A stretch of DNA of 64,000 nucleotides from Candidatus Altimarinota bacterium (lineage in GTDB: Bacteria; Patescibacteriota; Gracilibacteria; BD1-5; UBA2023), in assembly GCA_024709505.1 (NCBI GenBank), contig JANJWP010000021.1, positions 7,989-71,988 of the forward strand. Direction: 5' to 3'. Below, in pieces: positions 28,872 through 47,580 of this stretch. The notes under the pieces were generated by a model. That model did not search any database. It saw nothing but the letters and a program-made list of their open reading frames with translations, and was not told the origin of the DNA. Numbering within the stretch: position 1 is the stretch's first letter; every line of letters begins with the position of its first letter. The translations under genes and the position numbers were made by a program.

Positions 28872-29864
28872 CTAATCCCTTAGCAAAAAGAAATTGAAGA
28901 GCGAGTAGCTCACGACAATGAGCAGAAGTCCCGCGAAAATGTATTTGATTGTTCCTTTCGCCTTTTTCAACTTCTCGTCGTCGCCTCACGAAGTCAGCAC
29001 GAGCCACCCGGCATAAATGATAAGCAAAACCGTGACGATGCCCAAAAACCCATTGAGGTAGTTTACGATCGAGGTCATGATGCTCACGGCTCATCCGACG
29101 TTTGGATCTTCGAGTTTGCACACTCCGAAAATGAGCGTGTTCTCGCATCGGACGGTTCCGTAAATGCTCGTTACGAGGGCTTTGGGAATCTTGATGAGGA
29201 GAAATCCCGCAATGCCCACGACGATCGACTTTTTGGCGGATTTGGCTTTTTCCTCGTCGCCTCCGGACGAAACGAGCTTGAAAAACGCGAGGAAGGCGAT
29301 GGCGAGGAAGGCGAAGCTCGCAAGAACTTCCATGAGTGCCACGAACGGATATACGAGCCGGTCGAGAAACACGTCAGCCGTGCGTCCGGTAATGTTTTTA
29401 TCGTAAAGCGTCGAGACGAAAACGAAAGCGCTCTGCATCACCACGATGCCAATGGTCGTCGCGAAAATGGAAGACTTCCATTTCTTGGCGTCATCCTCTC
29501 CGCCCTTCGAAAACAAGAGCCGGAGAACCGAAATGACGAGATAGATGACCGCTATCGCAATGAAGAGGTTTTTTACGTCCCTCGCCACCATGATCACGCC
29601 ATTGAACGCGCCACGCTCACCGGTATTGGAGGCCGTGAAAAAATATCCGGTGAACGGTGAGGCGAACTGGTCGAGATATCCGTTTCGTCCAGCGGCACCG
29701 GATTTTGGAGTCGCCCGCGCATCAAGTTCGCTTGAAGACGAGGAAACCTGGATGATGTCCTCTAGGTCTATGGCCGAAGCGGTTGCCGGAAAAATGGAAA
29801 CGGCCGGAGCGGCAATCGCAAGGAATGCCATCAACTTCGACAGCGATTTGGACAAAAATGACAT
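28872..29864 (-). CDS. Secreted protein made of three fused T4SS-pilin-like (VirB2/TrbC-type, CPR T4SS_pilin-like) modules
   Basis: Track ORF 29091..29864 extended through TGA at 29093..29091 and 28988..28986 to TAG 28874..28872 (330 aa). Signal peptide: MSFLSKSLSKLMAFLAIAAPAVSIFPATASA. There are three copies of hydrophobic helix + S-x-G-G-D/E-D/E-x-K..K-x-I + hydrophobic helix: LLFSKGGEDDAKKWKSSIFATTIGIVVM, FKLVSSGGDEEKAKSAKKSIVVGIAGFLLI, LVLTS[UGA]GDDEKLKKAKGTIKYIFAGLLLIVV. Confidence 0.7.
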
Positions 29865-29940
29865 TTGGAAAACGCGAAAACGGGGCTACTTGCGAGAAAG
29901 TATAGCGAGAGTTGCGGGGATTTCCATCCTTTTCGAGCGG

Positions 29941-32868
29941 CTATCCCTGCATAATGCCGAGCCGAGCTTCGATTTCCATATCGACGTATTCCTTTTTTCG
30001 TCCGTACATTTTCCGGGAGTACTCCTTGATAATTTTCGCACGTTCGGGGTCTTTGTAGGTATTGTCCCAAATGGTCTTCATGTCGAACGGACGGGTCGTC
30101 GCGTTGTCGATGTTGAGCTTGCAGTAGGTCGTGAAATTGGCAATGCCGATAATGTCCTGTTGCGAAAGGAGCGGGGCGTATTCCTTCTCCAAGTATTCCG
30201 CGTCTTCCGCGCCGACCTTGAAACTCATGATGGTGCCCGCGTTGCCGAAGACCGCGTCCTTGATGGACGGCTTTCCGTCTTTCGACTTGTTTCCGCCGAT
30301 CTGCGCGATGAACTGGTGCGCCATGATGAGCGCCAAGTGGTATTTGCGGGCTTCCGAGAGGATTTCGCCGAAGGTATCGGTCGCAAAGTTCTGGAATTCG
30401 TCAACGTAGAGGAAGAAATCCTTGCGTTGGTCTTCGGGGGTATCGGCGCGGCTCATGGCCGCCATGTTGATTTTGGAAACGAAGATGAGGCCGAGAAGCT
30501 GGGCGTTGAGGTCGCCGATCATCCCTTTCGAAAGGTTGACCATAAGAACCTTCTGATCGTCCATGACCCGGCGGAGATTGAATGCCGATTTCGGCTGGCC
30601 GATGATGTTGCGGATGGTGGTGTTCGTAATGAACGGGCCGAACTTCGAGGAAAAGTACGGAATCATTTCCTGCTTTTCGCGATCGCCGGTGGAGGCGTAT
30701 TCATGGTCCCAGAAAGCCTTTACGACCGGGTTCTTGACCTTGGATACCTTGTACTTCATGAACGCGTCGTCAACGAAGAGGCGCGGCACGTCGATAAGGG
30801 TTCCGCCTTCGTCTTCGTCGTCCATGAGGGTGAGACAGCCGTTGCGGAAGTAGTGTTGGATGCGCGGGCCGAAAACTTCTTCGTTGAAGATCTTGATGAA
30901 GATGGAAGTCGCATCAAGTGCGGCGCGGTCTTTTTCGATGGCGCGCTGGGCCGGGTCGGTCGAGATGACTTCGAGCATGTTCAGTCCCATGGGACGCTCG
31001 TAATCGGCGGGATCGAAGACGATCATGTCCTTCGCCCGCTCTTTCGGCGTGAAACTGATGATGTCCTCGACCAAGTCTCCGTGCGGATCGATGACGCAGA
31101 GCCCGTCGCCGTTCCAAAGGTCCTGTCGGGCAAGGTAGCCGACGAACACGGACTTACCTCAACCGGATTTACCGATGATGTAGTGGTGGCGTCCGCGGTC
31201 TTTGCGCATGAAATAGATGGGCTTCTTCACGTTGCGGTATTCGTTCCACCCCATGAGTACCGCGTCGGTATAAAGCGGGAAGCCCGCAAGATGGCGCTGC
31301 TTCATTTCGGAGACGGGCATTTTTCCCGCGTCGGCGGGTTTTCCCTTGTTGTCGCCTTCGGTCGCAACCGGAACGACGGTTCCGTCAACCAAGAGGAAAT
31401 TCTTGTTCTCGTCGCGTTTCAAATTGAGGTTCTTATCCACCGCAAGAAGCGATCCGTCCTCGGTAAAAACGTTTCCGTGGGCGTCGCGCTTATAGTCGGA
31501 AAGCACGGTCGGATTCGAGGGGGTCTTGAGATTGTGCGGGGGCGCGAGCATCTTGTACTCGAGCCACTTGATGATGGGCGATCGGTTGTAGTTGATGTCC
31601 GGAAAATGATAGAGCGTCGAGAGTTCGTCCGTTGAAAAAGTGGACACTCCTTGAAGGAAACCCAAAAGACGGAAACGGAAGGCGAAATACCGGATCGGAA
31701 CGAAAAAGAACGCGAACAGGTCTTCGTATTGCGGATTGTCGAGCTTGTTGTTGTATTCGTCGGTAAAAATGCTCGTTCCCCCTATCGTGGTCTGCAAGGC
31801 GATTTCGGCGCTCTCGGGAGTATCAGATCCCACGATGACCCGGATTGACGCGAGGAATCCCGGTTGTCCGGCGGATTCGCCCATCGCCTTGTGCCCCTCT
31901 TGTTCGGCTTGGTTGAAAATTTTGTAGGAGTCCCCCGAAGACGCCCCCGGAGCCATGGAATCGGAGGTTCGTTCATTATTGACGAGCGTGTTGATGAGCC
32001 AGTAGATCGGAGCGAGTACCGATTGAATGGCTGAAAGCCAAAATCCGGCCTTCGCCCTTCCTTTGTACTCCCCCTTCGCCACGAGATTCGCAGCCTTTTT
32101 GGCCTTTTTATTCCACCACGAAGACCGGGGCTTCGCGATGATTTGAAGCACTGCCTTGTCGGTGTGCTTGAGGGTGCCGAAGTTATTGGTGAACGTCGAA
32201 AGCGGATCGTCCTCGAAGTACTTGAAGGTCTTAATCGGATACACGTCGTCGTTTACCTTGGAGATGCTCGCGGCACGAACGGTATATCCGGCAGGCTTGA
32301 GGTTCGGGTATTCGCTTGGACGGATGATCTTCACTTCGGCATCCGGATAGTTCGAAGTGACCTGTTGCGCGATGAAATTCGCCACGCCGGAATAGGTCAC
32401 GACGTAAAACGATATTTGTCCCTGATCGAAAACGAGTTCGAGCGAGGCTTTCATGTGGTCGAAAATCGTATCGAGCACCCAATCCTTGAAGGTGATGTCG
32501 CCGATTTTATGAATCGACTTGAAGAAGATGGACATGATTCCCACCTTTTCTTTGAAATCCTTTTTCGTTTCGCGTTCCTTGTCGAGCTTGGAATCAGCCC
32601 GCGGCAACGTTACGCGCATGTAAACGAGCCTTTTTGCGGCGTAGATTTCGTAGAGGATCCGAACGAGTTTGAGAAGAAAAAAAAGGAGGAGAACGAGCAA
32701 AAGCACGTTCCATACGACGGCGAAAAGATATTCGAGCATCTCCCAAAAGGAGCCTCATTCTTCGGCCGGAACGGTTTTGGAAGCCGTTCCCGAACGCTCG
32801 GTTCCGGCGATGGCGGCATGCGCGACGGGGAGAAAAAATCCCAGAAGCGACGCAAAGGTTTCAGACAT
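29941..32868 (-). CDS. VirD4/TraD-like type IV coupling-protein-family ATPase, paralogue 1 (975 aa)
   Basis: Joins 31159..32739 and 29941..31149 through TGA 31161..31159, which sits in the Walker A loop (IIGKSG[UGA]GKSV). It extends upstream through TGA 32757..32755 to ATG 32868, which has an AAAGGAGAGG Shine-Dalgarno. Features: N-terminal TM helix, VIDPHGDL, Walker B-like FFLYVDEFQNF, ARKYHLALIMAHQFIAQI. Confidence 0.8.
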
Positions 32869-33019
32869 ACCTCTCCTTTGGATTACGGAATCGGGGAAAT
32901 AGTACCACACTCTTGGCGTTCGGGCAAAAAAGGCGGCGCCATTCCCCCTTTACGAACGCCGGGTTTTCGGTATTATCGTTCCCGGTAGCGCGAAAATATT
33001 CTTTTTCCGCGCTTTTTTC

Positions 33020-34525
33020 ATGGTTAAAACCGTATTCTCCTCGTCGATTCGAGGCCTATTTTGACAGCTCGTCCACGTGGAAGTGGACGTTTCTCCGGGA
33101 CTGCCCTCGTTCTCAATCGTCGGACTCGGCGATACGGCGGTCCAAGAAAGCCGCGAACGGGTTCGGACCGCCATTCGAAATTCTGGATTTTCCTTTCCGC
33201 AAAAACGCGTCACGGTCAATTTGGCTCCGGCCGAAATTCGGAAGGCCTGACCGGGATTCGACCTTGCGATCGCCATCGGCATCATTGCCGAAGAATGCGG
33301 ACTGAAAGAAAGCGACCTGAAGGGGATAGCCGTTCTCGGCGAACTCGCGCTCGACGGGACGCTCCGGAACGTTGGCGGAATCGTCGCCCATGCGGCCTCT
33401 CTCGGAGAATATGAAACGTATGGCCTGCTCGCCTCCGAAAGCGACGCGCAAACAGCTTCATTTATTCCGAACGTCATCGCATACGGAGCGAAAACCCTTC
33501 GCGAAGCGGTCGAAGCCCTCCAAAAAAGAAGGGGCGGGAAGGCTGTTGCGAAAAAACGTTCCGAAATCCAGAGCGCCGTCCGGACGTCGGATTTTCCGGA
33601 TTTTTCGGATATCGCGGGACAGGAGCGGGCGAAACGCGCCCTTGAAATTGCCGCCGCGGGAGGACATAACGTGCTTCTTGAATGAGCCCCTTGATCGGGA
33701 AAAACCTTACTTTGCCGGGCATTTCAGGGGATTTTGCCGGAAGTTTCACCGCAAGAACTCATCACCTTAGCGAAAATCCGATCCGTTTCCGGATCATTTT
33801 CCGATCCGTTTTCGCTCGAACGCCCCTTCGTAAGCGTCCATTCCGGGGCGAGCGCGGCCAGCTTGCTTTGATGATGACCGCTCGCCAAGCCCGGAGAAAT
33901 CACCCTCGCACACCTTGGAACGCTTTTTTTGGACGAACTCCGGGAATTTCCACCCTACCTGCTCGACGCCTTGAGGCAACCCCTCGAAGAAGGAAAGGTT
34001 CGGGTTTCGCGGGCGCTCGCGAGCCATTCGTATCCGGCCAGGTTCCAGTTGCTCGCCGCAACGAACCCCTGTCCGTGCGGATACCTCTCCGACCGTGAAA
34101 AACCTTGCACATGCGCACCGGGATCGGTTGAGCGTTACCGAAACCGAATTTCCGGCCCCATTCTGGACCGAATCGACCTCTTCGTCGGCGTACCAAGACT
34201 TTCATCGATCGAAATTGGCAACCAAAAACGGGGGGATGCGTCGGCAAAAATACTTGAGCGCGTCGTTTCTGCCCGATCTATCCAATTCGAACGGTTTTGA
34301 ACGCGCGAAAAAACCAACGCCTCCCTTTTGGGAAAAGAACTCTCCGAAATGAGCATCTCTCCGGAAGCCGAAAAGTCAGCGCTCGAAGCGGTCGATCGCC
34401 TCGGACTCTCCGGTCGGGCATACGACCGGATTCGGAAGGTTTCCCGGACGATTGCCGATTTGGATGGTTCGAAAACCGTCGAAATCGCTCACATGGCCGA
34501 AGCCATGAGTTATCGTGAACGCTAA
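33020..34525 (+). CDS. comM: Mg-chelatase-like ATPase ComM/YifB
   Basis: 501 codons in one frame with 8 in-frame TGA (33062, 33248, 33683, 33692, 33869, 33872, 33875, 34298). Lon-like N-domain ([33 protein letters not shown][UGA][11 protein letters not shown]). Walker A VLLE[UGA]AP[UGA]SGKT. LL[UGA][UGA][UGA][28 protein letters not shown]. The track only shows 33929..34300 and 34328..34525. Confidence 0.9.
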
Positions 34526-34558
34526 AATTCGCATTCTTCGGCAACGCTCGGCGCGTCT

Positions 34559-34597
34559 AAAAAACGTCCGCCGGAAAAGCTTCCGGCGGACGTTTTT
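34559..34597. terminator. Bidirectional terminator between comM and the HTH gene
   Basis: AAAAAACGTCCGCCGGAA-aagc-TTCCGGCGGACGTTTTT. Confidence 0.7.
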
Positions 34598-34607
34598 GAA
34601 CGTTTCG

Positions 34608-35666
34608 TTACGCGAGCTTCGCGCCTTCCTTGAGTTGGTACATGTTGCGCCCGACACGCTCGACGTACTTTCGGTTTTGAAGGTTCATATAGATGGTCGA
34701 GGTTTTTACCTGACGGACCCTTAGGACCTTGGCGACGATATCTTCGGTCGAGAGCGGAGTTTTCGCCTTGTTGAAGACGTCGATAATGACGTCGAGGACG
34801 GTTCCAGGCTTGTATCCCCATTCCTTGAGAACGTAGATTCCGCGTCCGATAAGCACGAATTCGTTATTGCGGATGAGTTCGTTGTGGATGGTGGCAACCT
34901 TTACGCTTTCTTGGAAACGGTCGGCAATCGCGTTGGTAATTTCGACGAAGTGCATCGGCTTCTTGTTCTTTTTGAGAACGTACACGGCCTTGTCCTTGAG
35001 CGTCGAAGGGTTGAGGATCTTCCATTTTTCGAGACCGACGTATTTTTCTTCGCCCTTAACGATGTCGGTGTAAACGTCGAGAATCGAATCGATCAGAACG
35101 GCTTCGACCTTTCAAAACTGTGGGAAAAGGTTCATCTTCACCGTTTCGTAGAGGGCCGAGTTTTCCATGATGTCGCCCTTTTTCTTCAATACTCGAACGG
35201 CATCTTTGTATGCCTCCTGAACGAGCTTTTTTTGAACTTCCGGGAGCGAGAAGTAGGTGCGGGTTCCGAGTTGGGGCTTGCTTTTTTGAATGTTGTAGTC
35301 GGACTGGAGGATGACTTCGATAATGCCGGAGTTCACGTCTTCGGAAATTCCGGTTTCGCGGATGACGGCCGAAACGAGGCGGTCGCGTATGAGGAGTCCG
35401 CCATGGAGGGCAAGAATCTTGTTTCCGATCGACTGGATTTCGTGGAGGCGGGTCGATTTGACGATGCGTCCGATTTTCCGGATTCCCACGTCTTCGATTT
35501 GGCGCACCCGTTCACGGGTAATCGCATAGGATTCGCCGATGGACTGCAAAGTCTCGCGCTCGCCGTCGAGCCCGATGCGGCGGGAGATGACCGCCCGCTC
35601 TTTTTCCGTAAGACCCGCGAGTACCGAGAGGAAATTCTCGCGGATTTCCGCGCTTAATACCGCCAT
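34608..35666 (-). CDS. Sigma-70 region-4-like HTH protein with C-terminal HARE-HTH-like domain (352 aa)
   Basis: Joins 35112..35666 and 34608..34985 through TGA 35114..35112. N-terminus LTEKERAVISRRIGLDGERETLQSIGESYAITRERVRQIEDVGIRKI is a sigma70 r4 pattern. C-terminus KPMHFVEITNAI...NNEFVLIGRGIYVLKEWGY. Confidence 0.65.
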
Positions 35667-35746: not shown

Positions 35747-35775
35747 CGAAAAAGCCTCCCCTAAACGGGAAGGCT
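35747..35775 (-). terminator. Terminator overlapping the stop of 35761..36378
   Basis: On the minus strand: AGCCTTCCC-gtttag-GGGAGGCT followed by TTTTTCG. The TAG stop lies in the loop. Confidence 0.55.
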
Positions 35776-36378
35776 CATGTTCTTTTTATCGGGCGATTCC
35801 TTGCCGATAATGGCGTCGTATTCTTCGAGCATTTCGGCAGTCGTCCGACTGTTTTCAACGTAGGCGGTTTCAAAAAGTTCGCGCTTGTGCTCGCGATATG
35901 CGAGGGCTCCGCCAATCATTACGAATAAGTCTCCCACGAGCGAGAGGGCCGGTCCGTTTCCAAGGGCGACGTCCTTCGTAAAGATCGAGAAGCCCCGAAT
36001 GACGTTCATCGTGGAAAAGTCGAGGGCGAAAAGGCAGGCTGAAGCGAAAAGGCAAATGGCGAAGTCGCTCATCGCAAGCCCCGATCTCGACTTGATTTCG
36101 GATTTTGTCCGATGGGAAAACGCGACGACGAATATCCCCGCGAGAATGAGGAGCTTGACGTATCCGACATATCAAAGCGAGAGCGAGAACGCCGTTCCTG
36201 ACATTTCCCCTCAAACCGAAAACCAGGTCATGAAGACCGCGATGAACGACGACGCAAGCCCGACGACGACGACCCTTTGGGATCCCTTGAGGTGGAAAAA
36301 ATTGAACGAGAGCCGATCAACCGCGTTTCGAATGCGGTTTCGGAGGCGGCGGTGCTTGGAGTTTTGCGAAAAGTTCAT
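35761..36378 (-). CDS. Hypothetical membrane protein (205 aa)
   Basis: Track ORF 35761..36072 extended upstream by hand through TGA 36174..36172 and 36213..36211 to ATG 36378: MNFSQNSKHRRLRNRIRNAVDRLSFNFFHLKGSQRVVVVGLASSFIAVFMTWFSV[UGA]GEMSGTAFSLSL[UGA]YVGYVKLLILAGIFVVAF... It has 4-5 hydrophobic helices. Confidence 0.55.
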
Positions 36379-36745: not shown

Positions 36746-37942
36746 TTGGAAAAAGAGCGGCGGTTCGTCGAAAAGAAGGACCCGAAAGCCTTCACGCTCG
36801 TCGAAGTGCTGGTCGCCATCACCGTATTGGCCATCGTTCTCGTTCTCGGACTTCAAGGACTCGGGCAAATCGCCGGATACCGAACCAACGTGAGCGACCG
36901 GGTAGATTTGTGACAGGACCTCTACTACAACGTCGAGCGCCTCGTTTCGATCGTAAAGGACGGCGGCGTCATAGACTACGAGGAATACTGGAACCGGTTC
37001 GCCATGGGCACCGGAACGAATGTCGGAAACCTTTCCTCCGCCAATATCGGCGGAGGATACGCCAACCTTACCGGATTCGGAAACTACGGAGCGGGAGGCA
37101 GCATCGCTCCGGGGGGCGCTTTCTGAGCCGGACAATATCTCTGTCTCAGCGGAAACGGAACGCCAATGGGGACGGGCGGATGTCTTTCGTCGTTCAATTC
37201 GGCAGGAGCCGACATGACGGGAATGCCCCAGCGGTACGGACAGTACGCCTTGCAATTTTTCGATGCCAATGCCAACGCCAACGGCGATTTGGGCGATGAA
37301 AACGGCGATGGCAGATCCACTGGTGACGACGATGACGAAGAGCTTGGCGCCGGACCTGCCGCGTTCGTCCCCGGAGAACCCCTTCGCGAACTCTATCTCA
37401 TCAAGAAGAATTCCGCGGTTCCCGAACGGCTCATCCTCCGGTGGGTCGTCGCCGCCGACCCTAACCGTCCATCCTGAGCGACTTGCGTCGGGAATGCTGA
37501 CGGCTCCGTTACCGGAAGCGGCTGCATCGGACGCGTCGAAATGCTTCGGCTCGTCGGACGCGATTATGGAATCGCGCATTCCGGATCGGTCGCGTCCTCC
37601 TGACGCTTCGACGGAAAAATCGACACGTGGGAATGCCGCGGCGATTTCCATTGCGCCGGAAACGAGAATACCCCCGTGTGATCGGGAAGCTCGTTCAATA
37701 TCGGAACGACCGAGTGGGTAAGCGTCTTTCCCGAAGACATTAACGTCAAGAGCGTTTCGTTTTCGCCATATCCGCACAAGGATTACCGGCTCTCCTGGAA
37801 GGAAAACGATCCTTCGATCCGCATCGCCCCGTATGTCCGAATCGACATGACGCTCGGATTTTCTTGGATCCGAAGGAAAAAATTCAATGCCGGATCCGAT
37901 CCGCAAGCCCATGTCACGACTTCCGTCTCCCTTTCCGATTAG
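36746..37942 (+). CDS. Large type IV pilin-like protein (about 398 aa)
   Basis: One frame from 36440 to TAG 37940..37942 with in-frame TGA at 36911, 37124, 37475, 37601 and 37679. Prepilin motif KKDPKA/FTLVEVLVAITVLAIVLVLG. The nearest in-frame start is TTG 36746 (uncertain). There is an acidic loop DANANANGDLGDENGDGRSTGDDDDEE and several Cys. Confidence 0.6.
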
Positions 37943-37945
37943 CCC

Positions 37946-38866
37946 ATGTCCCGCATTTCCACCGCAATACGATCGAATCGGGAAGGTTTTGCCATCTTCC
38001 TCGCGATGCTCCTGACGGTCCTCATCGTGCTCATGGGAGTCTATCTCATAGACAAGCTCGTTCCGGCGTCGAAAGATGTCAAAGGGGTCGAACACGGAAA
38101 CGTCGCCTATTACAAAGCTGCGAGCGCCGTCGAACTGGCACTTTCGGAGCTTTCGGGCAACAATCCGGGAACCCAGACCGGCAGCAGCGCGGGAAACCTT
38201 TCAGGTTCGGGATATTCGCTTTCCACCGTAGGAAGCGGAACGGTCGTTCCCCGGCCGGGATTCGGCAACAGCGAATATGACGACGATTGGAACGTCATCG
38301 CCATAGGGAGACCGGTGCAAATAAAATTGCCAGATGGATACCGTCCTTCCGATCTCCGGTTGGAGTTCCGCGTTCCCGACCTCAATCGCAACGGACAATC
38401 CGGGGAACAAGGCGGCGGAGAACCATCCGAAGCCCTTTCGGGAACGGTCGCGCAAATCGTGAACTGGAGCATTTCCACCACGGCTGACACTCTCGTTTCC
38501 GCAAGCTCCCAAGTCCTTACCGCAGACCAGATAAACCAGGCGGCACCCCTCTCGCTCTGATCGCTTACGGGCTCGGTTCTCACGAGCACGGGCGCTTCGA
38601 GCGTAACCGATTTCGAGACCGCAAACTGCGGCTCCGGAGCACGTTGCACGGTCAAGCTTTCCCTCGTGCACTCACTCGAGACGCGGGGCGGACAGGCGAT
38701 GCCGTATCTGGAATACCGGCTTTCCTCAGCCGTAGCGACGCCCATCCCCCAACAGTGGACGCGGGTCGTTGCCGAAGGGTATTCCCGAGGATTCAAGCAG
38801 ACGAAAATCCGCAACGTCGAACAAAACACCGTCGGCGAAGCCCTGGATTTCACCGTGTTCCAATAA
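37946..38866 (+). CDS. Minor-pilin/pseudopilin-like protein (306 aa)
   Basis: Joins 37946..38560 and 38666..38866 through TGA 38558..38560. The N-terminus SNREGFAIFLAMLLTVLIVLMGVYL is a PilX/GspK-like hydrophobic N-terminus without Glu5. It starts 4 nt after the preceding pilin gene. Confidence 0.5.
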
Positions 38867-39885
38867 TGCGGGAGTTTTTCATAGGAGAGTCCGAATCCGG
38901 ACAGCGTCTCGACAAATTTTTAAAAAAGCTCCTTCCGGGAGCGCCCCTCTCGCTCATCTATAAGCTTTCGCGAACCAATCGGGCCAAAATTGACGGAAAA
39001 AAGCGGGAAAACGATTTCCGGCTCGACGCCGGACAGAGCGTAAAAATTTTCCTCTCGGAAGAGGAATTCGCCGAATTCGGACGAAACCCCTTTCCAACCG
39101 TCGGAAACAACGGGGACGGGAATATGGGCGCTCTGCGTGGCGAAGGTGACGAAGATGGCAAAAAAGGAGCGTTCGAAAAGTTCCGCCTTACCGGGGAACG
39201 CATCCTTTTTGAAGATCCTTTCGTGCTCGTCGTGAACAAGCCGGCGGGGGTCAACGTTCACCCCTGAGACCATAAGAGCGACGAGGCCTCGCTCATAGAG
39301 GCGGTAATGGACTATTTTCAAGGAAAATTCGACACGCTCACGTTCCGTCCGTCACTCGTCCACCGCATCGACCGGGATACCTCAGGAGCCGTGATTGTCG
39401 CCAAAACCAAGCCGGCCCTCGATTACCTCCTGAACGCGCTTCAAAACGACCGCTTCGACAAAACCTACGCCGCGATTGTCCTCGGATTCCCCGTTCCTCC
39501 GACGGGAACCGTCAAGAAGCGTCTTTTGCGCATTGAGAACGCGAAAAACGAAGCCAAAGTGCGGATCGATGAGGGCGGACAAAGCGCCATCACCCATTAC
39601 CAAACCCTCAAAGCCGGAATCGAAGGAAAGTACGCGCTTCTCGAATGCCGAATAGAAACGGGGCGAACGCACCAAATCCGCGTCCACCTCGCTTCCATCG
39701 GAACTCCGGTTCTCTCCGATCGGGCATACGGGGATTTGAAGGAAAACGCCTTCGCGAAACGGCGATTTTGAATTTCGAGACAACTCCTGCACGCTTGGAA
39801 AATCGGTTTTCCCCATCCGGAAACGGGGAAACGCGTATCGGTGGAGGCGCCGTTCGAGCCGGATATGGCACGGCTGCTCGGATAA
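38866..39885 (+). CDS. rluD: RluA-family 23S rRNA pseudouridine synthase (RluD-like)
   Basis: S4 domain (GQRLDKFLKKLLPG). LVVNKPAGVNVHP[UGA] (39265), LVHRIDRDTSGAVIVAK, ETGRTHQIRVHLA, second TGA at 39769, QLLHAWKIGFPHPETG. TAA 39883..39885. The ATG overlaps the upstream TAA (TAATG). Confidence 0.85.
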
Positions 39886-39933: not shown

Positions 39934-40956
39934 CTATGGATTTCTCGGACTTTGAGCATTCGAAGCCTTGTAGATCACCTGCCCGAGGGGATTCATGATC
40001 TTTTTCAAGGAATCGCGCAAAAGCGAATAGTCTTCCAAGATGAAGAGCATGACGACGTGCGATCCGTAGGTGCGCTCAAATTCGTTATAGGCAATCATGG
40101 CCTGCGGAAAAACTTCCCGAGTGTGCCGGATTTCGGAATCAATCGAAGAAACCATGCTCGCCGAGCTGGCCAAGAGCTCTTCCGAAGAACCGCTTTTCGC
40201 AGCCTTGGAAGCATCTTCTGACACCGTTTCCCCTTTCGATTTTTTCCGGGCCTCCTCAGCCTCGATGAATTTCGAAAGCCGGTTTTGGGCATTCGCCTTA
40301 AGGTATTGGAGGTAATGTCGATAATTGCAGTATTCGTACGTGGTTTGATTCAGGAGGTCCTTTTTCATGAAAACGTTGGCCTTCCCTTCGGTGGAAGTTC
40401 GGTTGGCGCAGTTTCTCCGGGAAAGTTCCTGTTTCAAGAGTTTGGTTTGTTCTTCGATCTTTTTCACCGTATTTCCTCCGTCGGCTTTTTCGGCGCGGAC
40501 CGTCTTTAAAAGCTGTTCGTGCGTGCGAATCTTAAAATTGATTTGGGCACAAGCAAAAATGCCGTTCATCCGTTCTTTGTAGGTTTCGCTCGCAAGTTTG
40601 GCGTCGCGACCGAAATCAAACGGACTTCCTGCTCCGTTCGACGCGAGAATTTCTCCAATTCCGGAAACGTCACCCCCAACCCCTTCGACGCCCTTTCGAT
40701 ACTGCTTGTCGGCGGTTGCGGAACCGATTTCCGGATAGGAAAATTCTTTGATGCGGATGATGGAACCGTTATTCGGATTCCATGCCCTCTCGCAAACCTG
40801 TTTGACGCTTTTTTTATAAGCCTCCTCATATGACCATACGACCCCTTCTTCCGCATGGGCCGAAAACGTTGCGAGAGCAAGGGAAGATGCCGTGAAAAAT
40901 CCGGCAGCCATGCCGAACGTTACGATGCGTTTGACGATTGTAGACATTTTCGACAT
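39934..40956 (-). CDS. Secreted helical hypothetical protein (340 aa)
   Basis: Intact ORF. Signal peptide or anchor: IVTFGMAAGFFTASSLALATFSAHA. Mostly helical and Lys/Glu-rich, with four Cys. It starts 2 nt after the stop of VirD4-like paralogue 2. Confidence 0.6.
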   Translation of the reverse strand: MSKMSTIVKRIVTFGMAAGFFTASSLALATFSAHAEEGVVWSYEEAYKKSVKQVCERAWNPNNGSIIRIKEFSYPEIGSATADKQYRKGVEGVGGDVSGIGEILASNGAGSPFDFGRDAKLASETYKERMNGIFACAQINFKIRTHEQLLKTVRAEKADGGNTVKKIEEQTKLLKQELSRRNCANRTSTEGKANVFMKKDLLNQTTYEYCNYRHYLQYLKANAQNRLSKFIEAEEARKKSKGETVSEDASKAAKSGSSEELLASSASMVSSIDSEIRHTREVFPQAMIAYNEFERTYGSHVVMLFILEDYSLLRDSLKKIMNPLGQVIYKASNAQSPRNP

Positions 40957-40958
40957 AT

Positions 40959-43367
40959 TTAGACAGCACCGATTCGGTAGATGATTTCCTTTTCGACGAA
41001 CTCCCTTTCGCGACCGTACTTGAGACGCGAAAGCTCTTTGTAGGCGGAGGCGAGCTTTTTGTTTCCCTGTTTGAGATAGGGATTATCCGGGGTAATGCTG
41101 AAGGCCGGGGTCGGCTGTCCGTCAACCATGAGCTTCATCACCCCTTTGAACTTATCCATGTTAATGAGGTCACGCTCCGAAAAATTCGGCGCGAACTGTT
41201 TGGCAAGGAACTCCGCATCTTCTGGTCAGACCTTGTAGGAAAGCAGGGTTCCCACGTTGCCGAAGATGGCGTCCTTCAGATTCACGTCGGATTTGGTAAG
41301 CGCATCGGACTTATGGAGTTGTCCAAGATACTGGTGGGCCACGACGAGTCCGAGGCGATACTTACGGGCTTCCGAAAGAATCGATTCGATCGAATCGGTC
41401 ACGTAATTTTGAAATTCGTCGATATAGAGGAAAAAATCCTGTCGTTCGCTTTTGTCGATGGACTGCCGACGCATCGCGGAAACCTGCACCTTCGAGACCA
41501 TCATCATGCCGAGAAGCTTTGAGTTGAAGTCTCAAAGAATTCCTTTGGAAAGGTTGATGAAAAGGATTTTCTTATTCTGCATGACGTCGAACATGTCAAA
41601 CGAACTTTTCGTTTGACCAATGATGTTGCGCATCATCGCGTTAGTAATGAAGCCGCCGAATTTCGCCTGGAAATACGGGATGATTTCGGCTTTTTCTCGG
41701 TCCCCCATCTTGGCATAGGTATAATCCCACCAAGCCTTTACGATGGGATCTTTGAGCGTTCTTCGGCGTTCCTTTTGAAATTCGTCGTCCGTAAAAAGGC
41801 GGACGATGTCGGTGAGTGCGGAACCCGCGGGATAGTCCATGAGGGTAAGCACGCCGTTTCGGAAATAGTCCTGAATGCGCGGACCGAAGATTTCGTTTCC
41901 AAACAGCTTGATCATCATGTTCATCGCGTCCTGCGCGACCATCTGCTTTTCGTCGGGAGTGCTTGCTTCGAGCAAATTCAGCCCCATCGGACGCGAAAGG
42001 TCGGCAGGATCGAAATAGATAACGTCGTCGGCACGTTCGCGAGGAACGAACGGCATGAGGTCGCTCGCGAGGTCGCCGTGCGGATCCATGACGCAAATGC
42101 CGTTTCCGAGAGCGATGTCCTGTCTCGCAAGAACTTGGATAACGCTCGATTTACCCGTACCGGTCTGACCGATGACGTAGAAATGACGGAATCGGTCTTC
42201 GGTTTTGATCCGAATTTCCCGTTTTACGCCACGATAGTTGTTGGAGCCGATGAGAATGCCTTCGGTGGGGATGTTCACCGGGGCTTTTACGATCTTAAAA
42301 TTCTGCCAGCGAATTTCCGGAGAAGTGTCGTATTTGGAATGGGGAAAATGAAACAGCGAAGCGATTTCCTCAATGGAGAGAATCTGTTTTTTCGCAAACC
42401 ATTTGCGGGGAAAGGAGCGGAAGATGTACGAACGGAAAAACGCGTCGGCATCGTGCGCCCTATGGGCCGAAAAACCGTTGTAGGAAGGTCCGGAGAACTG
42501 CGAAAACGCCGCGGCGATATTGTCGAGTTCGGCTTTGGCCAAAACTTTGTCACGAGCCGTAACCACTACTCTAACCACCGTTTCAAATCCGGTCTTTTTG
42601 GCTTTTTCACGAACGAGTTCCTTGCTTTCGGCTGGATGTTCTTTTTCTTGGCCCTCCTTATGGTCGGAAGATTCGAAAAAAACCGATAGGACGGCCGAAA
42701 ATGCCCGAGTAAGAAAATTGCCGTGGTGCGAGTTTATGCGGTCAGCTTTTTTAAACGCTTTGCGCTGCCAATCGTCCGGAACCGAGCGTACAAGAATCTG
42801 GATGGCCGCCGATTCGTCTTGGGCAAGTTTTCCGAGCGCTCCGGTAATGGTGTTGATGGGGTCGGATTCGAGTTTCTGGTGAGTTCTGATGGGAAGGAAT
42901 GGGTGTTCGTGAAGAACCATCTCCGCCCCAGCCGCAACCTTCCGATCGCGAAAAACGTTCGGTTCGGAAACCTCCTCAACTACTGCATCGGGATAAAAAC
43001 CCGTAATCTGTTTTTCAATGAGAATTCGGGCCTTTCTTGGAACCGCTACGAAAAAGAATATTTCGCCGTCTTGCGCGAGGTATTCGAATGACAACGGATC
43101 GGCTCCGAAAAACGTTTCGCGGAATCATCCCTCGGAAAGTCCCTTGAGCGAGGCGAGGAATTGCTCCATGATGCCCGTCCATTCTTTAAAATCCCGCACG
43201 GTTTCTTTGCGATCATCAAGGTCGCTATCCTTTCTTGGAAGGGTTACTCGGAGAAACGCGGTTTCGAGACTCCGACGGAACGACACCTTCGTTTTCCACC
43301 AAAAGGCCGCGTAAGCGGTGAAAACAATGGAGGCGACGGCTATGAAGATCGCGGTTTCTTGAGACAT
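40959..43367 (-). CDS. VirD4/TraD-like type IV coupling-protein-family ATPase, paralogue 2 (802 aa)
   Basis: Joins 43125..43406 (trimmed to MSQETAIF, ATG 43367), 41532..43094, 41226..41507 and 40959..41159 in one frame. TGA at 43127..43125, 41534..41532 and 41228..41226. Walker A VIGQTGTGKSS, VMDPHGDL, FFLYIDEFQNY, ARKYRLGLVVAHQYLGQL. It is colinear with paralogue 1 along its whole length. Confidence 0.8.
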
Positions 43368-43575
43368 CGAGAGTGGATGGTTCGAACTCCCCCCATTGTA
43401 GCCCAATAGTGCGGAAATTCAAAATGTCGGAAGGAGCTTTATCCGGATTCGCAATTTCTGAATTCAACCGGAAAAACCCTGCTTGGATAGGATGACCGGC
43501 TTTGGCGGAGCGGCTTCAAACTCTTGACGGACGCCGTCCAAAAAAGGAGTCGTAGAATGGAATTGTCGAAACACG

Positions 43576-43605
43576 AAAAATCCCCCTCTTGCGAGGGGGA
43601 TTTTT
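43576..43605. terminator. Strong terminator after the S-layer gene
   Basis: AAAAATCCCCCTC-ttgc-GAGGGGGATTTTT, about 40 nt beyond the TAA of 43647..47192. Confidence 0.75.
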
Positions 43606-43646
43606 CTGCCGAATGACAGCCGAACTCTTGGGAATATCGAATCCGA

Positions 43647-46600
43647 TTAGTCGGAGATGATTGCGCCGTCGAGCTTGGTGGTGGTAAGGCGGAGAGCCGT
43701 AACGGAAGCGCCGGAATCGTCGTCAGAGTAGACGATAGCGGAGTCGTTGAGGTTCTCGAGGGATACCTGGACGGATTCGTTACCAGCAACGCCGGAGTCG
43801 AGTCCGATGGAACCCTTGATAACGAAGTAGACGGTCTGACCAGCCGAGATTTCAGCGTCGGTTCCGAGACCGGCAAGAGAGCCGGTAGCGTAGCCGCCGG
43901 AAACGGCGAGGGAGACTGCGCCAGTTCCGCCACCGATCTTTTCGACGGTGAGGGTCGTAGCGCCGGTATTGACGGTCTGAGCGATCTTGAGCTTGAGGTC
44001 GTCAATAACGGTCTTGAGAACTTCGGTGGTAGCTTGCTTGGTATTGGACGTGCTATCTGCGGTGATTGCGAGGATAGCGAGGTTGTTCGTACCAGAGGTA
44101 AGCTTGGTAGCGCGGGAAACGCCGCCGAACGAATCGACGAAGGAAACCGCGGATACGCGTACCGAGGAAACGGCAAACGCCTTGGAGTAGGTGGATCCGT
44201 TCGTAGCAGTAACGGCCTTCTTGGAGGACACGCCTTCTGCATCGGTGACGGTTACGAGTGCTTCGAGGATGGTACCGGTACCTACCTGGTCCTTACCAAT
44301 CTTGTTGGTGATGGCCTTGACGTAGATGGTTTCCGAACCTTCGGCAACTGCGTAGTTGACGTCTTCGAATACGACGGTGGAGGAAGTAACGGTCTTGGAA
44401 GCGATGAGAGAACCATCGGCCTTGTAGAGGGCAACGGAACCTACAGCGTTCGTAACGTTAGAACCAGAGAGGGCGACGGTGATGTCCTTTGCGGTAACGG
44501 CTTCGTTGGTAGCGGTGAGCTTGACTGCACCGACTTCGGAAGAGGTGGTACCAGCGAGAACGGACTTTTCCTTGTCTGCCTTCGCGTCAGCGTTATCCAT
44601 AGCGACGGTGAGAGTACCTACGCCAGTAACGGTGATGGTGCGATCGGAAACGGCGGTTCCGGAGACGGAAACGTCGTCGTTGTCGTAGTCTTCGAGGTCG
44701 AGACCGTTGGATGCAGCGACACGGAGTTGGAGTCCGCTTCCGCTGAGGGTCTGGTCGTCAACGATGGAAACGGTAACGACGAACTTCTGGGTCTGGTTCT
44801 TCGCGATGTCAACCATGATGGAATCGAAGTTTGCCGTGGTGGAAATCGACGATCCTCCTACCTGCTTAACGAGGTTCGCGTCGGAGACGGAATCCTTGTA
44901 AAGCTTGATAGCGGAGATGGAAGTGCTGTTGAAGTTGAGCGAACCCGCTTCCTTCGCAACGCGAACTTCGCGGAGCTTGAGAGCGGAAGCGTCGTTAGCC
45001 TTGATTTCAAAAGCGAGAGCTTCTACGTCCTTGGAACCAACGACCGCGGTCTTGGAAGCCGAGAGCGGGAGTTTGGTAAGGGTAGCGGAAGCGGAAACAG
45101 CTTCGAGAGCCTTCATCGAAAGGGCGGACGGAGTAATGTCCTTAACCTTGTTGTCATCTTCGGTTTCCTGGATGTAGAGACCAGCGGTGGAAGTGGTGCT
45201 GGTATCTCCACCAAGATTGGAGAGCTTCACGTTGAGTTTCGGAGTACCTACGAAGGTAACGTCCTTGGAGTCAGCGCGGATTACGAAGGTCTTGGAGGTT
45301 CCAAGAGCGATCGAGAGGGAGCGGTCGTAGAAGGTCTCGGAAGTGCTGTTACCAGCGGAAGTGAGATCATAAACGGTACCCATCGATTCGTCGTAGAGCT
45401 CTACGTTTTCGAGAAGTTCGGAAACACCGGAACCGGTGGTCGAGTTTTCGATAACGATGTTGGCGGCTGCGATTTCGAGGGCTTTACCCTTGGTGTTGGT
45501 AACGATGATCTTACCAAGGACGATGTCCTTCTTATCCTTGAGGAACTGGGTAGCTTCTGCATCCATATAGGAAACGGCGATTTCGCCGGCCTTAACGGTG
45601 AGGCCCGAGTTCGAGAAGGAAGTACCAGCGGTGCCATTGACGGCAACGCCGATATTGTAGAGGGAACCTACGGCGGTAACGTCGAGCTTGTTGTCGAGAA
45701 CGAGATCGATAGTCTTAGCCGGACCTCCGATAATGTCTGCGCGAACGGAGAACTTGACGTTTCCGCCGTCCTTGATGGATACCGGGGTAGCCATGTTGAA
45801 GGTGACGTACTTGTCAACGGTCTTGGCGGCCGAAGCTACCTTGACGCCGTCTGCATAGAGTTCGAAGTTAGCGAGGTCGGTCTTTTCATCGACGGTGCCT
45901 TCTTCCTTAAGGGTGACGGACGAAACGAGGATGGATTCCTTGTTGGTGGAATCTTCGGAAAGCTTGAACTTTGCGATTTCCACGTTTTTGTCGCCGAGGG
46001 TAACCTGGGCGGGGGATCCATCAGCTTCAACCTTAACCTGACCTGCGGTAACGGCTGCGACCTTGTGGGTAGCGCCAACTACCGGGAAGGTAGCGGAGAT
46101 GGTTTCAGCGGAAGACGCGACTGCTTCAGCGTTGGTGATCTGAAGAGCGAATTCCTGGCTTGCCGCCGCACCGGTTGCAATGGAAGCAACGAGCGTAACG
46201 GTCTGGGTGGTTCCAGCCTTAACGACCATTCCGTTGGTGAGAACGAGGGTGGTCTGCTTGTCGGAGTTGTTGAACGGGTTGGTCTTCACCTTGGAAGCGC
46301 GTCCGTCAGCAGCGAAGACAGCGAGGTCGGAGATGAGGGTTCCGTCACCGAGACCTACCTGCTTAACGACGAGGGAGGAAACGGTGATGTCGGTCGAGCC
46401 TGCGGTGAGGTCGAACGAAGCCACGGAAACACCAGCGGCTCCCTTCGGAAGATTTGCGGCAGCTGCAGTCTTCGCGGAGAGGAATACGCCGAGGGTACCA
46501 GCCTTGGTAACAACGGAAACCGGGGTGTCGGTGGTGGTGTCGGTGGTGGTTCCGGTTCCGAAGAGATCACCGAGGTCGATGTCGTCTTCTTCTTCCATAA

Positions 46601-47192
46601 CACCTGCGACGCCAGCGGCTACCTTGAACGCTTCACCACGGGTGGCGGTTGCGTTCGGGCGGAAGTTGGTCGCGGTTGCGATGTATCCTTCTGCGGCAGC
46701 GGCGTTGATGTAACCTGCGAGGTCACCGAGCGACGAATCGACATCGGCGAAACCAGCGGAGGTTTCGGTGGTTTCGACGCCCTTGGCAGCCATGAGCATC
46801 TTGACCATTTCCGCGCGGGTAACGAGATCGAGGGGACGGAACTTGGCGTTTGCCTTCGAAACGATACCGGCGTTAGCAGCGGTTTCGATGTAGGAAGCGA
46901 GATCACCGAGCTTAGCGGTGGTAACGTCCGAGTACATCGAATCGGTTGCTTCTTCTACTTCTGCGCCATTGAGCTTAACGGCGATTTTTGCCATTTCCGC
47001 GCGGGTGATGTTGTCACCGAGACGGTATCCGGCTTCAGTAGTCTGGGAGTTGATGATCCCAGCTGCTGCGAGTGCGTCTGCGTAAGCGGCGAATTCGGAT
47101 GCTGCGGAAGCGGTAAGGGTGGACCCTACTGCGGCTGCGGCAACGGCGAACGCGCTAACGGTCGACGTAACTTTCTTAAAAAGGCTAGCCAT
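43647..47192 (-). CDS. S-layer protein: three N-terminal SLH domains plus about seven beta-sandwich-like repeats (1181 aa)
   Basis: Intact ORF without a single TGA. Signal peptide: MASLFKKVTSTVSAFAVAAAAVGSTLTASA. SLH-type repeats: FAAYADALAAAGIIN...ITRAEMAKIAVKL; LGDLASYIETAANAGIV...VTRAEMVKMLMAA; LGDLAGYINAAAAEGYI...ATRGEAFKVAAG. A Thr-rich linker follows, then repeated modules of ~110-130 aa rich in V/T/S/A (e.g. VASFDLTAGSTDITVSSLVVKQ, EIAKFKLSEDSTNKESILVSSVTLKE). Confidence 0.85.
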   Translation of the reverse strand: MASLFKKVTSTVSAFAVAAAAVGSTLTASAASEFAAYADALAAAGIINSQTTEAGYRLGDNITRAEMAKIAVKLNGAEVEEATDSMYSDVTTAKLGDLASYIETAANAGIVSKANAKFRPLDLVTRAEMVKMLMAAKGVETTETSAGFADVDSSLGDLAGYINAAAAEGYIATATNFRPNATATRGEAFKVAAGVAGVMEEEDDIDLGDLFGTGTTTDTTTDTPVSVVTKAGTLGVFLSAKTAAAANLPKGAAGVSVASFDLTAGSTDITVSSLVVKQVGLGDGTLISDLAVFAADGRASKVKTNPFNNSDKQTTLVLTNGMVVKAGTTQTVTLVASIATGAAASQEFALQITNAEAVASSAETISATFPVVGATHKVAAVTAGQVKVEADGSPAQVTLGDKNVEIAKFKLSEDSTNKESILVSSVTLKEEGTVDEKTDLANFELYADGVKVASAAKTVDKYVTFNMATPVSIKDGGNVKFSVRADIIGGPAKTIDLVLDNKLDVTAVGSLYNIGVAVNGTAGTSFSNSGLTVKAGEIAVSYMDAEATQFLKDKKDIVLGKIIVTNTKGKALEIAAANIVIENSTTGSGVSELLENVELYDESMGTVYDLTSAGNSTSETFYDRSLSIALGTSKTFVIRADSKDVTFVGTPKLNVKLSNLGGDTSTTSTAGLYIQETEDDNKVKDITPSALSMKALEAVSASATLTKLPLSASKTAVVGSKDVEALAFEIKANDASALKLREVRVAKEAGSLNFNSTSISAIKLYKDSVSDANLVKQVGGSSISTTANFDSIMVDIAKNQTQKFVVTVSIVDDQTLSGSGLQLRVAASNGLDLEDYDNDDVSVSGTAVSDRTITVTGVGTLTVAMDNADAKADKEKSVLAGTTSSEVGAVKLTATNEAVTAKDITVALSGSNVTNAVGSVALYKADGSLIASKTVTSSTVVFEDVNYAVAEGSETIYVKAITNKIGKDQVGTGTILEALVTVTDAEGVSSKKAVTATNGSTYSKAFAVSSVRVSAVSFVDSFGGVSRATKLTSGTNNLAILAITADSTSNTKQATTEVLKTVIDDLKLKIAQTVNTGATTLTVEKIGGGTGAVSLAVSGGYATGSLAGLGTDAEISAGQTVYFVIKGSIGLDSGVAGNESVQVSLENLNDSAIVYSDDDSGASVTALRLTTTKLDGAIISD

Positions 47193-47552
47193 AAGAAAAG
47201 TGAAAGTAAAAAGTATTCGCTTCGATTCGTTTTCTTCTCCGGGTCTGCCGTCCGGTTCGGATGGCGAATCTTGGCGCCTGAAGATTGCTCTCCAGGGAAG
47301 TTAAAGCTTTAACCTCCGTTAGTAGTATGCATACATAACGGGAGGGTTCGAGCAGCCCGAATGGACGGCCCGTCCCCTCCCGTCATGGCGTGCGAAACGT
47401 TGGCGAAGGAAAAAGATGGGTCGGAAGTCCTAATGTGGAAACTTTCCGCGCTTGAAAAATTCTTGGGGAATCCTGCTGCCTTCAAAAGAAGGGCGGCGGG
47501 GTGGGAATGTTAACGAGCGCGAGAAGGCGGATTCCGCCCTTTCGTGGTGCGA

Positions 47553-47580
47553 ATTATACGCAAAGGAGGGCGAAGTCAAA
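47553..47580 (-). promoter_or_regulatory. Near-consensus sigma-70 promoter of the S-layer gene
   Basis: On the minus strand: TTTGACT (47580..47574), a 15-16-nt spacer, then TATAAT (47558..47553). This implies an untranslated leader of about 355 nt before ATG 47192. Confidence 0.5.

Follow-up and report, generated by a model that had tools for sequence, protein, structure and literature searches.

Eleven genes around two VirD4-type ATPases in a code-25 Gracilibacteria genome: probably a core chromosomal neighbourhood of separate modules, one of them part of a dispersed type IV secretion system

Do eleven adjacent genes that include two VirD4-type ATPases, a VirB2-like pilin, comM, type IV pilin-like genes and a putative S-layer gene make up one translocation machine, or do they belong to several systems that lie next to one another? 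The question is raised by positions 28,872–47,580 of a 64,000-nucleotide stretch of Candidatus Altimarinota bacterium (class Gracilibacteria; contig JANJWP010000021.1 of assembly GCA_024709505.1, positions 7,989–71,988), referred to below, at its full length, as the window. The original prediction, made from the sequence alone, took these genes for a single, undescribed and minimal conduit. We regard it as likely that this part of a code-25 Gracilibacteria genome is a core chromosomal neighbourhood, in which five separately conserved modules lie side by side and in which the first of the ATPases (ATPase 1) and the pilin belong to the dispersed type IV secretion system (T4SS) of Patescibacteria. 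All gene calls were made with genetic code 25 (TGA = Gly), the only one under which the window is readable, and the genes on which the argument turns are the following (lengths in amino acids, aa):

28872–29864, minus strand: triple VirB2-like T4SS pilin, 330 aa, with three PF18895 (T4SS_pilin) stretches
29941–32868, minus strand: ATPase 1, 975 aa, matching PF02534 (T4SS-DNA_transf) with 43.8 bits against a cutoff of 20.1
40959–43367, minus strand: ATPase 2, 802 aa, matching TrwB_AAD_bind, DUF87 and TraG-D_C in Pfam

The pilin contains a signal peptide and three hairpins (helix, GG(D/E)(D/E)xK loop, helix) with six predicted transmembrane (TM) helices, and hairpins 2 and 3 are joined by a Cys..Cys linker. 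It scored 55.6 bits with PF18895 (cutoff 26.6, E = 6e-15) and 53.7 bits with the NCBIfam Mbov_0395 pilin-like model (cutoff 40). Its gene follows ATPase 1 on the same strand after a gap of 76 bp, and the two are probably co-transcribed. The pair was followed through 80 Gracilibacteria loci from a scan of one genome per GTDB species, which with two earlier loci gave a set of 82 compared by code-25 tblastn. A pilin gene was located within 1.2 kb downstream of ATPase 1 in 50 of 71 loci overall: in 13 of 14 with an ATPase 1 identity of at least 74%, in 8 of 26 at 66–73% and in 29 of 31 below 66%. ATPase 1 and the pilin are the only pair conserved class-wide. In the related loci, a hidden Markov model (HMM) built from the hairpins picked out 79 open reading frames (ORFs) that have precisely three hairpins and another 47 that have a single one. 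Distant Gracilibacteria have a fixed array after the ATPase (two three-hairpin genes, then a one-hairpin gene), of which only the first gene is left in the window's clade.

Further pilin genes were seen in some relatives. An extra inverted trio of single-hairpin genes lies beside the array in loci L065, L075 and L081 (e.g. L075:15146-16368, minus strand), and an extra single pilin 5–8 kb away in L044, L050, L053, L059 and L060. In a close relative radA directly follows the triple pilin gene (L062:13957-15282), a further gene of competence or recombination beside this T4SS module.

In canonical systems, VirB4 is the ATPase linked to pilin dislocation. A canonical VirB4, identified by its P-loop_TraG and AAA_10 domains in Pfam, was encoded 1–6 kb from ATPase 1 in 20 of the 82 related loci, usually behind a SpoIIE-type phosphatase gene. 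The order in the 66–73% identity group was ATPase 1, SpoIIE-type phosphatase, VirB4, a homologue of the window's 306-aa protein and rluD, and in three close relatives VirB4 lay 3–6 kb beyond the pilin. VirB4 is ubiquitous in Gracilibacteria, at 70–93% identity. Because VirB4 is found this close to ATPase 1 in 20 relatives, the ATPases are better described as parts of the dispersed Patescibacteria T4SS than as the 'orphan' motors of a 'minimal' conduit, as they had first been called. The window's lineage has presumably separated VirB4 from the ATPase 1–pilin module, with VirB4, and probably further T4SS parts, encoded elsewhere in the source genome.

The phosphatase is an observation in its own right: in approximately 17 species (loci L012-L023, L029, L030, L048, L071 and L078; e.g. 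L015:12974-16165) a membrane-anchored SpoIIE/PP2C phosphatase gene, absent from the window, stands between the DUF8128 ATPase (the domain is described below) and VirB4, a position that hints at phospho-regulation of the T4SS.

Nor is a system of this kind undescribed, as T4SSs of Patescibacteria have been published (PMC10633639, PMC12102498, PMC12857230). A Saccharibacterium cannot grow epibiotically without its chromosomal T4SS and the VirB2-like pilin array of that system (Wang et al. 2023, PMC10633639; PMC12857230), and the T4SS gene cluster is without a recognisable coupling protein or relaxase (PMC10633639). A survey of the phylum (Quinonero-Coronel et al. 2025, PMC12102498) counted 5,713 VirD4-type homologues in 2,918 genomes, only 148 of them near virB4, and called these homologues 'possibly exapted'; it reported pilin arrays of 2–11 genes across the phylum, relaxases in only 103 Patescibacteria genomes, T4SS loci carrying comF, recG and radA in class ABY1 and, in Gracilibacteria, dispersed T4SS parts with an undetectable VirB6. 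The idea that the locus serves a host-dependent lifestyle is the published one as well, a 2025 review having proposed T4SS and pilus as a conduit to the host (PMC12857230), and the view of the genes as envelope, pilus and DNA-uptake parts of an outer-membrane-less, code-25 Patescibacteria genome also stands.

As members of such a system, the window's ATPases would be hexameric, membrane-anchored motors of the FtsK/HerA superfamily at the cytoplasmic face, and together with VirB4 they would energise the chromosomal T4SS of host-dependent bacteria. The pilin encoded next to it may be what ATPase 1 works on: the motor would pull the pilin out of the membrane so that a pilus can be built or, alternatively, recruit substrate at the pilus base. 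The system as a whole would mediate an exchange of proteins, DNA or metabolites between bacterium and host.

Both ATPases share one plan, in which an N-terminal membrane helix is followed by a cytoplasmic domain of ~400–480 aa (DUF8128) and then by the ATPase; ATPase 1 accordingly reads as membrane anchor, DUF8128, an insertion of ~85 aa and a coupling-protein ATPase of VirD4/TrwB type. The two are paralogs, 50% identical over the ATPase domain and 27% identical over DUF8128 (BLASTP), with Walker A motifs GKSGGGKS (ATPase 1) and GQTGTGKS (ATPase 2) and a DEFQN Walker B region. The DUF8128 label (PF26449) was taken from precomputed annotations of public homologues, which NCBI names 'type IV secretory system conjugative DNA transfer family protein' or 'DUF87 domain-containing protein'. 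More than 3300 ATPase 2 homologues carry PF26449, and a search for the N-domain with a TGA-free window fragment as query gave 887 representatives at 50% clustering. ATPase 2 passed PF10412 (28.8 bits, cutoff 20.5), the NCBIfam equivalogs TraD and CD1115 reached 37–42 bits against cutoffs of 250–650, TIGR00929 reached 15.9 bits against 643, and the sole sequence match in the PDB was TrwB (E = 0.002). In Pfam searches, TrwB_AAD_bind was found in 40 and TraG-D_C in 43 of 44 family members.

AlphaFold (AF2) models had a predicted local distance difference test score (pLDDT) of 87 and a predicted template modelling score (pTM) of 0.77 for the N-domain, and 84 and 0.74, respectively, for the full length. 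In Foldseek comparisons the C-terminal half of the model aligned to the TrwB soluble domain with a TMt of 0.61–0.66 (root-mean-square deviation, rmsd, of ~5 Å over ~420 residues) and to Cagbeta with a TMt of 0.54. With the N-domain model alone, the top 14 matches were all TrwK/VirB4 chains (E = 1e-4 to 2e-3, probability 0.9–1.0), and the full-length ATPase 1 model aligned to TrwK over ~1000 columns. With moderate confidence, the proteins may be described as coupling-protein ATPases bearing a VirB4-like N-domain. No published mention of DUF8128 was found, and the survey cited above (PMC12102498) is silent on the ATPase N-domain and on fused pilins; three features, namely the DUF8128 plus VirD4-type ATPase plan, the triple pilin fusion and an ATPase conservation above that of most neighbours, seem not to have been described.

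A bolder proposal, which we put forward as speculation with the odds well against it, is that DUF8128 ATPases could constitute a third, Patescibacteria-wide class of T4SS motor, with a VirB4-type N-domain and a VirB3-like helix placed before a VirD4-type ATPase with an all-alpha domain, and be an intermediate between, or a chimera of, VirB4 and coupling proteins. In Gracilibacteria, paralog 1 would then be the dedicated partner of an unprecedented three-hairpin 'polypilin', extracting or nucleating it, and would tie the T4SS pilus to the processing of host DNA by ComM.

The identity of ATPase 1 was 63–89% among the top homologues listed and 60–78% in most of the 80 species-level loci. The corresponding values in the same loci were 41–52% for ComM and 39–50% for RluD, and uvrA and rpmE were similar to ATPase 1. 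To judge by these identities, the ATPases are probably under very strong purifying selection and are unlikely to be decaying relics of conjugation. A metagenome scan with an ATPase 2 profile found relatives in 575 of 600 candidate stretches, mostly at 36–43% identity, which presumably stem from other Patescibacteria classes. In two metagenome loci (L115 and L126), a stretch matching ATPase 1 at 38–41% identity lies ~1.5 kb downstream of the ATPase 2-type match, which suggests that they carry two DUF8128 ATPase genes in tandem.

Conservation at this level also bears on the notion that ATPases and pilin are what is left of a conjugative element that integrated beside a tRNA cluster. The pilin gene indeed has genes for tRNA-Thr, tRNA-Tyr and tRNA-Leu at a distance of 400–700 bp, its product matches an NCBIfam model of a pilin-like protein of integrative and conjugative elements, and the Patescibacteria T4SS descends from monoderm conjugation machinery (PMC12102498). 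The surroundings, however, are those of a chromosome. One flank contains fmt, typA, a sortase gene, rlmH, the three tRNA genes and rpmE, and the other a second pseudouridine synthase gene, murB, uvrA, glyA, comEC, lgt and rny; the intervening genes are housekeeping genes as well, relatives keep the gene order on both flanks, and the genes occupy the same chromosomal position in many species, with the 60–89% identity across the class pointing to vertical inheritance. GC (guanine plus cytosine) content is even across the eleven-gene region. No relaxase or integrase domain was detected on the sizeable window ORFs scanned with Pfam and NCBIfam (dedicated MOB profiles were not applied), and no PilB, PilC or PilD among the window ORFs scanned or inspected. 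As all sizeable ORFs between 28.8 and 47.6 kb are accounted for, PilB/PilC, relaxase and integrase are absent from the region. The locus is chromosomal and not a mobile element, with housekeeping flanks and synteny shared with relatives.

A mobile-element origin was rejected, as integrase, relaxase and att repeats were not found and position and GC are conserved and uniform, respectively, and we assign it a negligible probability.

The remaining features, which make up the other modules of the region, are given below together with the putative signals between them:

32869–33019, no strand: intergenic region of 151 bp between the divergent ATPase 1 and comM genes, with a promoter-like site inside
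33020–34525, plus strand: comM, 501 aa (Mg_chelatase E = 7e-80, ChlI 2e-39, Mg_chelatase_C 3e-25)
34608–35666, minus strand: Sigma70_r4 + HARE-HTH protein, 352 aa (PF04545 4e-12, PF05066 1e-9)
35761–36378, minus strand: polytopic membrane protein, 205 aa, without family match
36746–37942, plus strand: large type IV prepilin-like protein, 398 aa (Pfam N_methyl 9e-7; TIGR02532)
37946–38866, plus strand: candidate minor pilin, 306 aa, without family match, N-terminus PilX/GspK-like by eye
38866–39885, plus strand: RluD-family pseudouridine synthase (PF00849 PseudoU_synth_2, 2e-34)
39934–40956, minus strand: secreted protein, 340 aa, with signal peptide, predicted helical, without family match
43395–43422, minus strand: promoter-like site TTGAAT-16-TACAAT upstream of ATPase 2, a consensus match only
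43582–43598, minus strand: terminator-like hairpin and T-run, 49 bp 3' of the SLH gene stop codon
43647–47192, minus strand: SLH-domain surface protein, putative S-layer protein, 1181 aa (SLH E = 7e-12, two stretches)
18157–18858, outside the region: third N_methyl pilin of the window (Pfam N_methyl)

All eleven genes of the region, with the order and strands first proposed, were confirmed under code 25 by Pfam, NCBIfam and ORF translations; the labels 'S-layer' and 'minor pilin' are inferred from domains and sequence features. TGA encodes Walker A glycines in both ATPase 1 (GKSGgGKS) and ComM (LLEgAPgSGKT), and it occurs at sites where the other ATPase paralog has Gly (BLASTP comparison of the paralogs), so that code 25 is needed for the window; ORF lists made with table 11 split its genes into fragments. 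A gene caller based on codon usage picked antisense strands in this 54% GC sequence, and strands were fixed by homology and by eye.

The use of TGA for Gly was very uneven among the 26 window genes counted. It was zero in the SLH gene (0 of 98 Gly codons), the genes for the 340-aa secreted protein, an FKBP lipoprotein, the sortase and the third pilin, rny and comF, and TGA made up 15–18% of Gly codons in comM (8 TGA-Gly codons), wecA-like, lgt, comEC and a 461-aa gene. This unevenness may track expression level, the zero count of the SLH gene reflecting high expression.

The first neighbour to be weighed is comM, which would form a module of its own, divergent from ATPase 1. It was encoded divergently upstream of ATPase 1 in 13 of 15 loci at ≥74% identity, 19 of 20 at 66–73% and 0 of 30 below 66%; the pairing is limited to one large clade. 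A promoter-like site at 32949–32976 (plus strand) faces comM in the 151-bp intergenic region. The promoter scan as a whole was at chance level (10 sites versus 8.6 expected), and only well-placed sites are named here.

The adjacency to comM underlies the main rival explanation. The DUF8128 ATPases, exapted from a T4SS, would be DNA or protein translocases in their own right: ATPase 1 could, for example, be an import motor feeding ssDNA or dsDNA to ComM, ComEC and ComF, in the manner of the T4SS-derived Helicobacter ComB or the Sulfolobales Ced system, and ATPase 2 an exporter of its 340-aa partner or of surface proteins. The comM pairing in 32 of 35 loci at ≥66% identity speaks for it, as do radA after the pilin in L062 and uvrA and comF nearby in many loci, the unusual ATPase architecture, a conservation high enough to imply a core role, and the tight coupling of ATPase 2 to a secreted protein. 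Survey data speak for it as well, with VirD4-type homologues unlinked to virB4, possibly exapted and, in S. epibionticum, non-essential, and with com and recombination genes in the ABY1 loci (PMC12102498). Nevertheless, comM pairing vanishes in the very group, below 66%, where pilin pairing is strongest, and ATPase 1 has a T4SS pilin as its conserved partner, often with VirB4 adjacent. In Saccharibacteria, according to a review (PMC12857230, citing PMC10633639), competence requires type IV pili as well as ComEC, and viability is unaffected when comEC is lost. We therefore consider exaptation unlikely, albeit a rival to be taken seriously, and retain the assignment of ATPase 1 and its pilin to the T4SS.

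The type IV pilin-like genes would form a third module, a minor-pilin operon (large prepilin, PilX-like protein and rluD as passenger) divergent from the genes for the membrane protein and the sigma4/HARE-HTH (helix-turn-helix) protein. The 398-aa prepilin has a TTG start, as read from the sequence, and a leader, MEKERRFVEKKDPKA, followed by FTLVE. The N-terminus of the 306-aa protein, REGFAIFLAMLL, is pseudopilin-like by eye, and searches of Pfam and NCBIfam gave zero family matches, N_methyl included. Its stop codon overlaps the rluD start; rluD is always downstream of the 306-aa gene and the pair is kept in relatives, also where the 306-aa homologues stand directly downstream of VirB4 (the 66–73% group). 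rluD is a housekeeping passenger gene. On the other side, a terminator-like hairpin overlaps the stop codon of the 205-aa membrane protein gene, and this gene, the sigma4/HARE gene and the large pilin gene move together through rearrangements (L016, L019 and L084). The sigma4/HARE-HTH protein, once thought dedicated to the locus, is 61–91% identical among relatives throughout the class, a level more in keeping with a housekeeping factor, and its role is probably a general one in association with transcription.

ATPase 2 and the 340-aa secreted protein, whose gene begins 3 bp beyond the stop codon of ATPase 2, would constitute the fourth module as tightly coupled partners. Homologues of the secreted protein are encoded immediately downstream of ATPase 2 in eight loci (L008, L024, L026, L062, L074, L083, L084 and L086). 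A second paralog within 10 kb of ATPase 1 was present only in L008, L024, L026 and L074 (4 of 82) and in L083. In L084 (62% identity) a block of ATPase 2, secreted protein, rluD, 306-aa gene, large pilin and divergent membrane protein and sigma4/HARE genes is kept, and in L085 (59% identity) the ATPase 2 block is not.

The fifth module would be the SLH gene, transcribed independently. Its product has a signal peptide in its sequence and SLH domains on a large secreted protein. In neither L083 nor L024 does this gene lie upstream of ATPase 2, and even the relative whose ATPase 2 comes closest to that of the window (87%) lacks the S-layer adjacency. It appears to be its own transcription unit, separated from ATPase 2 by the terminator-like hairpin, and its position beside ATPase 2 looks incidental.

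How much of this order is shared bears on whether the eleven genes could be one new, self-sufficient minimal conduit across an S-layer-covered envelope, working without VirB4 or PilB/PilC. They do lie within 19 kb, VirB4 and PilB/PilC are absent from the window, and the full order is kept in L083, L062, L004, L008, L026 and L074. These are the closest relatives only (ATPase 1 or 2 at least ~75% identical), and beyond them the order is mostly not conserved: as relatives become more distant it is lost just as it is for rpmE and rlmH, the housekeeping genes nearby, rpmE for instance being conserved over the same range as the full order. VirB4 close to ATPase 1 in 20 relatives, the missing S-layer adjacency, the terminator-like and promoter-like signals of the SLH gene, rluD as a passenger and the conservation level of the HTH protein all speak against a single unit as well. 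The 19-kb functional unit of the original prediction thus gives way to a class-wide ATPase 1–pilin pair among other modules, and we consider the single conduit very improbable. Exaptation is the main rival, and the single-machine and mobile-element readings fit the data poorly.

Several observations weigh against the neighbourhood-and-T4SS interpretation or limit it. VirB4 is absent from the 64-kb window by tblastn with Gracilibacteria VirB4 (best E = 0.008, at the ATPase 1 Walker A), which together with the ORF accounting bears out the lack of VirB4, relaxase and PilB/PilC first noted at the locus; its presence elsewhere in the source genome is thus extrapolated from relatives, the search having covered the window. 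None of the best 120 VirB4 matches lay on the 1.27-Mb contig of L001, which has a window-like arrangement, probably because the genes of that contig were called with code 11. VirB3/PrgI, VirB6 and TrsD were not found among the scanned window proteins with Pfam and NCBIfam (dedicated CONJScan/MPF-FATA profiles were not applied). In the 66–73% group the pilin is mostly away from ATPase 1, and the pilin HMM placed a pilin near only 3 of 80 ATPase 2-type loci presumed to come from other Patescibacteria classes. The VirB4 likeness of the N-domain is at fold level only (TM-score 0.28–0.35, rmsd 10–16 Å), hhalign of DUF8128 against the Gracilibacteria VirB4 N-domain gave zero signal, and the VirB4 N-domain family (CagE_TrbE_VirB, PF03135) was found in 0 of 44 family members (Pfam, E ≤ 1). 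In S. epibionticum the T4SS is essential and the VirD4-type homologue is not (PMC12102498), and the ATPases may act outside the T4SS. Finally, functional cross-talk between modules is possible, given that sigma4/HARE, membrane protein and large pilin, and also ATPase 2 with the minor-pilin module, survive rearrangement together.

Of the genes named for the rest of the window, comEC (Competence, E = 3e-43), the sortase, a GT4 glycosyltransferase and the third N_methyl pilin were recovered, and comF is weakly backed, by a motif like that of phosphoribosyltransferases seen by eye and weak tblastn matches (25–32% identity) in related loci; Pfam gave no match for it. Two genes adjoin the ComF-like gene at 53032–55635 (minus strand), one for a polytopic membrane protein of 404 aa and one for a protein of 461 aa. 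In the 461-aa protein, the N-terminus, MANFIAVCSKNGQRVELSISRPTLEEAKSELHNQGFAIIEIRE, resembles a GspF/PilC platform start by eye and the C-terminus has TM helices, with no such match in Pfam. Positions 54000–58000, spanning the 461-aa gene, two small ORFs and ctpA, have a GC content of 0.446 versus ~0.54 elsewhere, and mobile-element genes were not seen there. At 548–3550 (minus strand) lies a 1000-aa protein without family match, with a poly-Gly/Asn/Pro C-terminal tail, GGGGGGGGGNNGGPGGTTTPG. Upstream of typA, at 20723–22749, both strands carry long, mutually overlapping ORFs (on the minus strand one of 607 aa rich in Pro/Ala/Ser/Glu, versus an N-terminal extension of the typA frame), and the coding strand is ambiguous.

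Collectively, the locus is no new machine and would represent a Gracilibacteria variant of a known T4SS. To our knowledge, the Patescibacteria T4SS is the only one essential for the growth of its bearer. The abundant 'unlinked coupling proteins' of Patescibacteria would carry a VirB4-like N-domain, and the fact that pilin genes follow the DUF8128 ATPase rather than VirB4 in Gracilibacteria suggests an ATPase–pilin partnership. The conserved triple fusion would constrain pilus assembly or else hints that the protein acts as a polytopic base or platform, in a class without a findable VirB6. If true, this would bear on the evolution of T4SS ATPases and on the connection between ultrasmall episymbionts and their hosts.

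Set against known systems, the window's ATPases resemble VirD4/TrwB coupling proteins (R388 TrwB, H. pylori Cagbeta) in having an N-terminal anchor, a Walker A/B domain and an all-alpha domain, and family ATPases match PF02534, PF10412 and PF12696. They differ in the ~400–480-aa DUF8128 between anchor and ATPase, in the lack of a relaxase or conjugative context, in being two core-genome paralogs and in scores far below the cutoffs of the NCBIfam equivalogs. With VirB4/TrwK they share an N-terminal alpha/beta domain followed by a RecA-like ATPase, and the membrane helix before the N-domain recalls VirB3–VirB4 fusions; in contrast, the N-domain has no sequence similarity to that of VirB4 (TM-scores 0.25–0.35), the ATPase half is nearer VirD4 by sequence and fold, and the class has a bona fide VirB4 besides.

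The ComB system of H. pylori and the Ced system of Sulfolobales offer a parallel: the present genome combines ComEC, ComF and ComM with parts derived from a T4SS, which is the analogy behind the DNA conduit first suggested for the locus. ComB, however, has VirB4 and lacks VirD4, the NCBIfam CedD match is weak (E = 5e-10, 38.6 bits versus a cutoff of 600, Walker A region only), and the window's ATPases are tied to DNA solely by comM adjacency in one clade.

The T4SS of Patescibacteria itself, derived from MPF-FATA (PMC10633639, PMC12102498, PMC12857230), differs from the window's set in several respects: VirB4, VirB3, VirB6 and TrsD were not found in the window, its pilin adjoins a VirD4-type ATPase and not VirB4, the pilin is a single three-hairpin polypeptide rather than an array of single-hairpin genes, and DUF8128 with its VirB4-like fold is not a subject of these papers. 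The likenesses are that both are chromosomal, without relaxase and with VirB2-like PF18895 pilins in a monoderm, that VirD4-type homologues, about two in each genome, mostly lie apart from virB4, in a system dispersed in Gracilibacteria, that competence and recombination genes stand alongside in some classes, and that a role in host interaction has been proposed.

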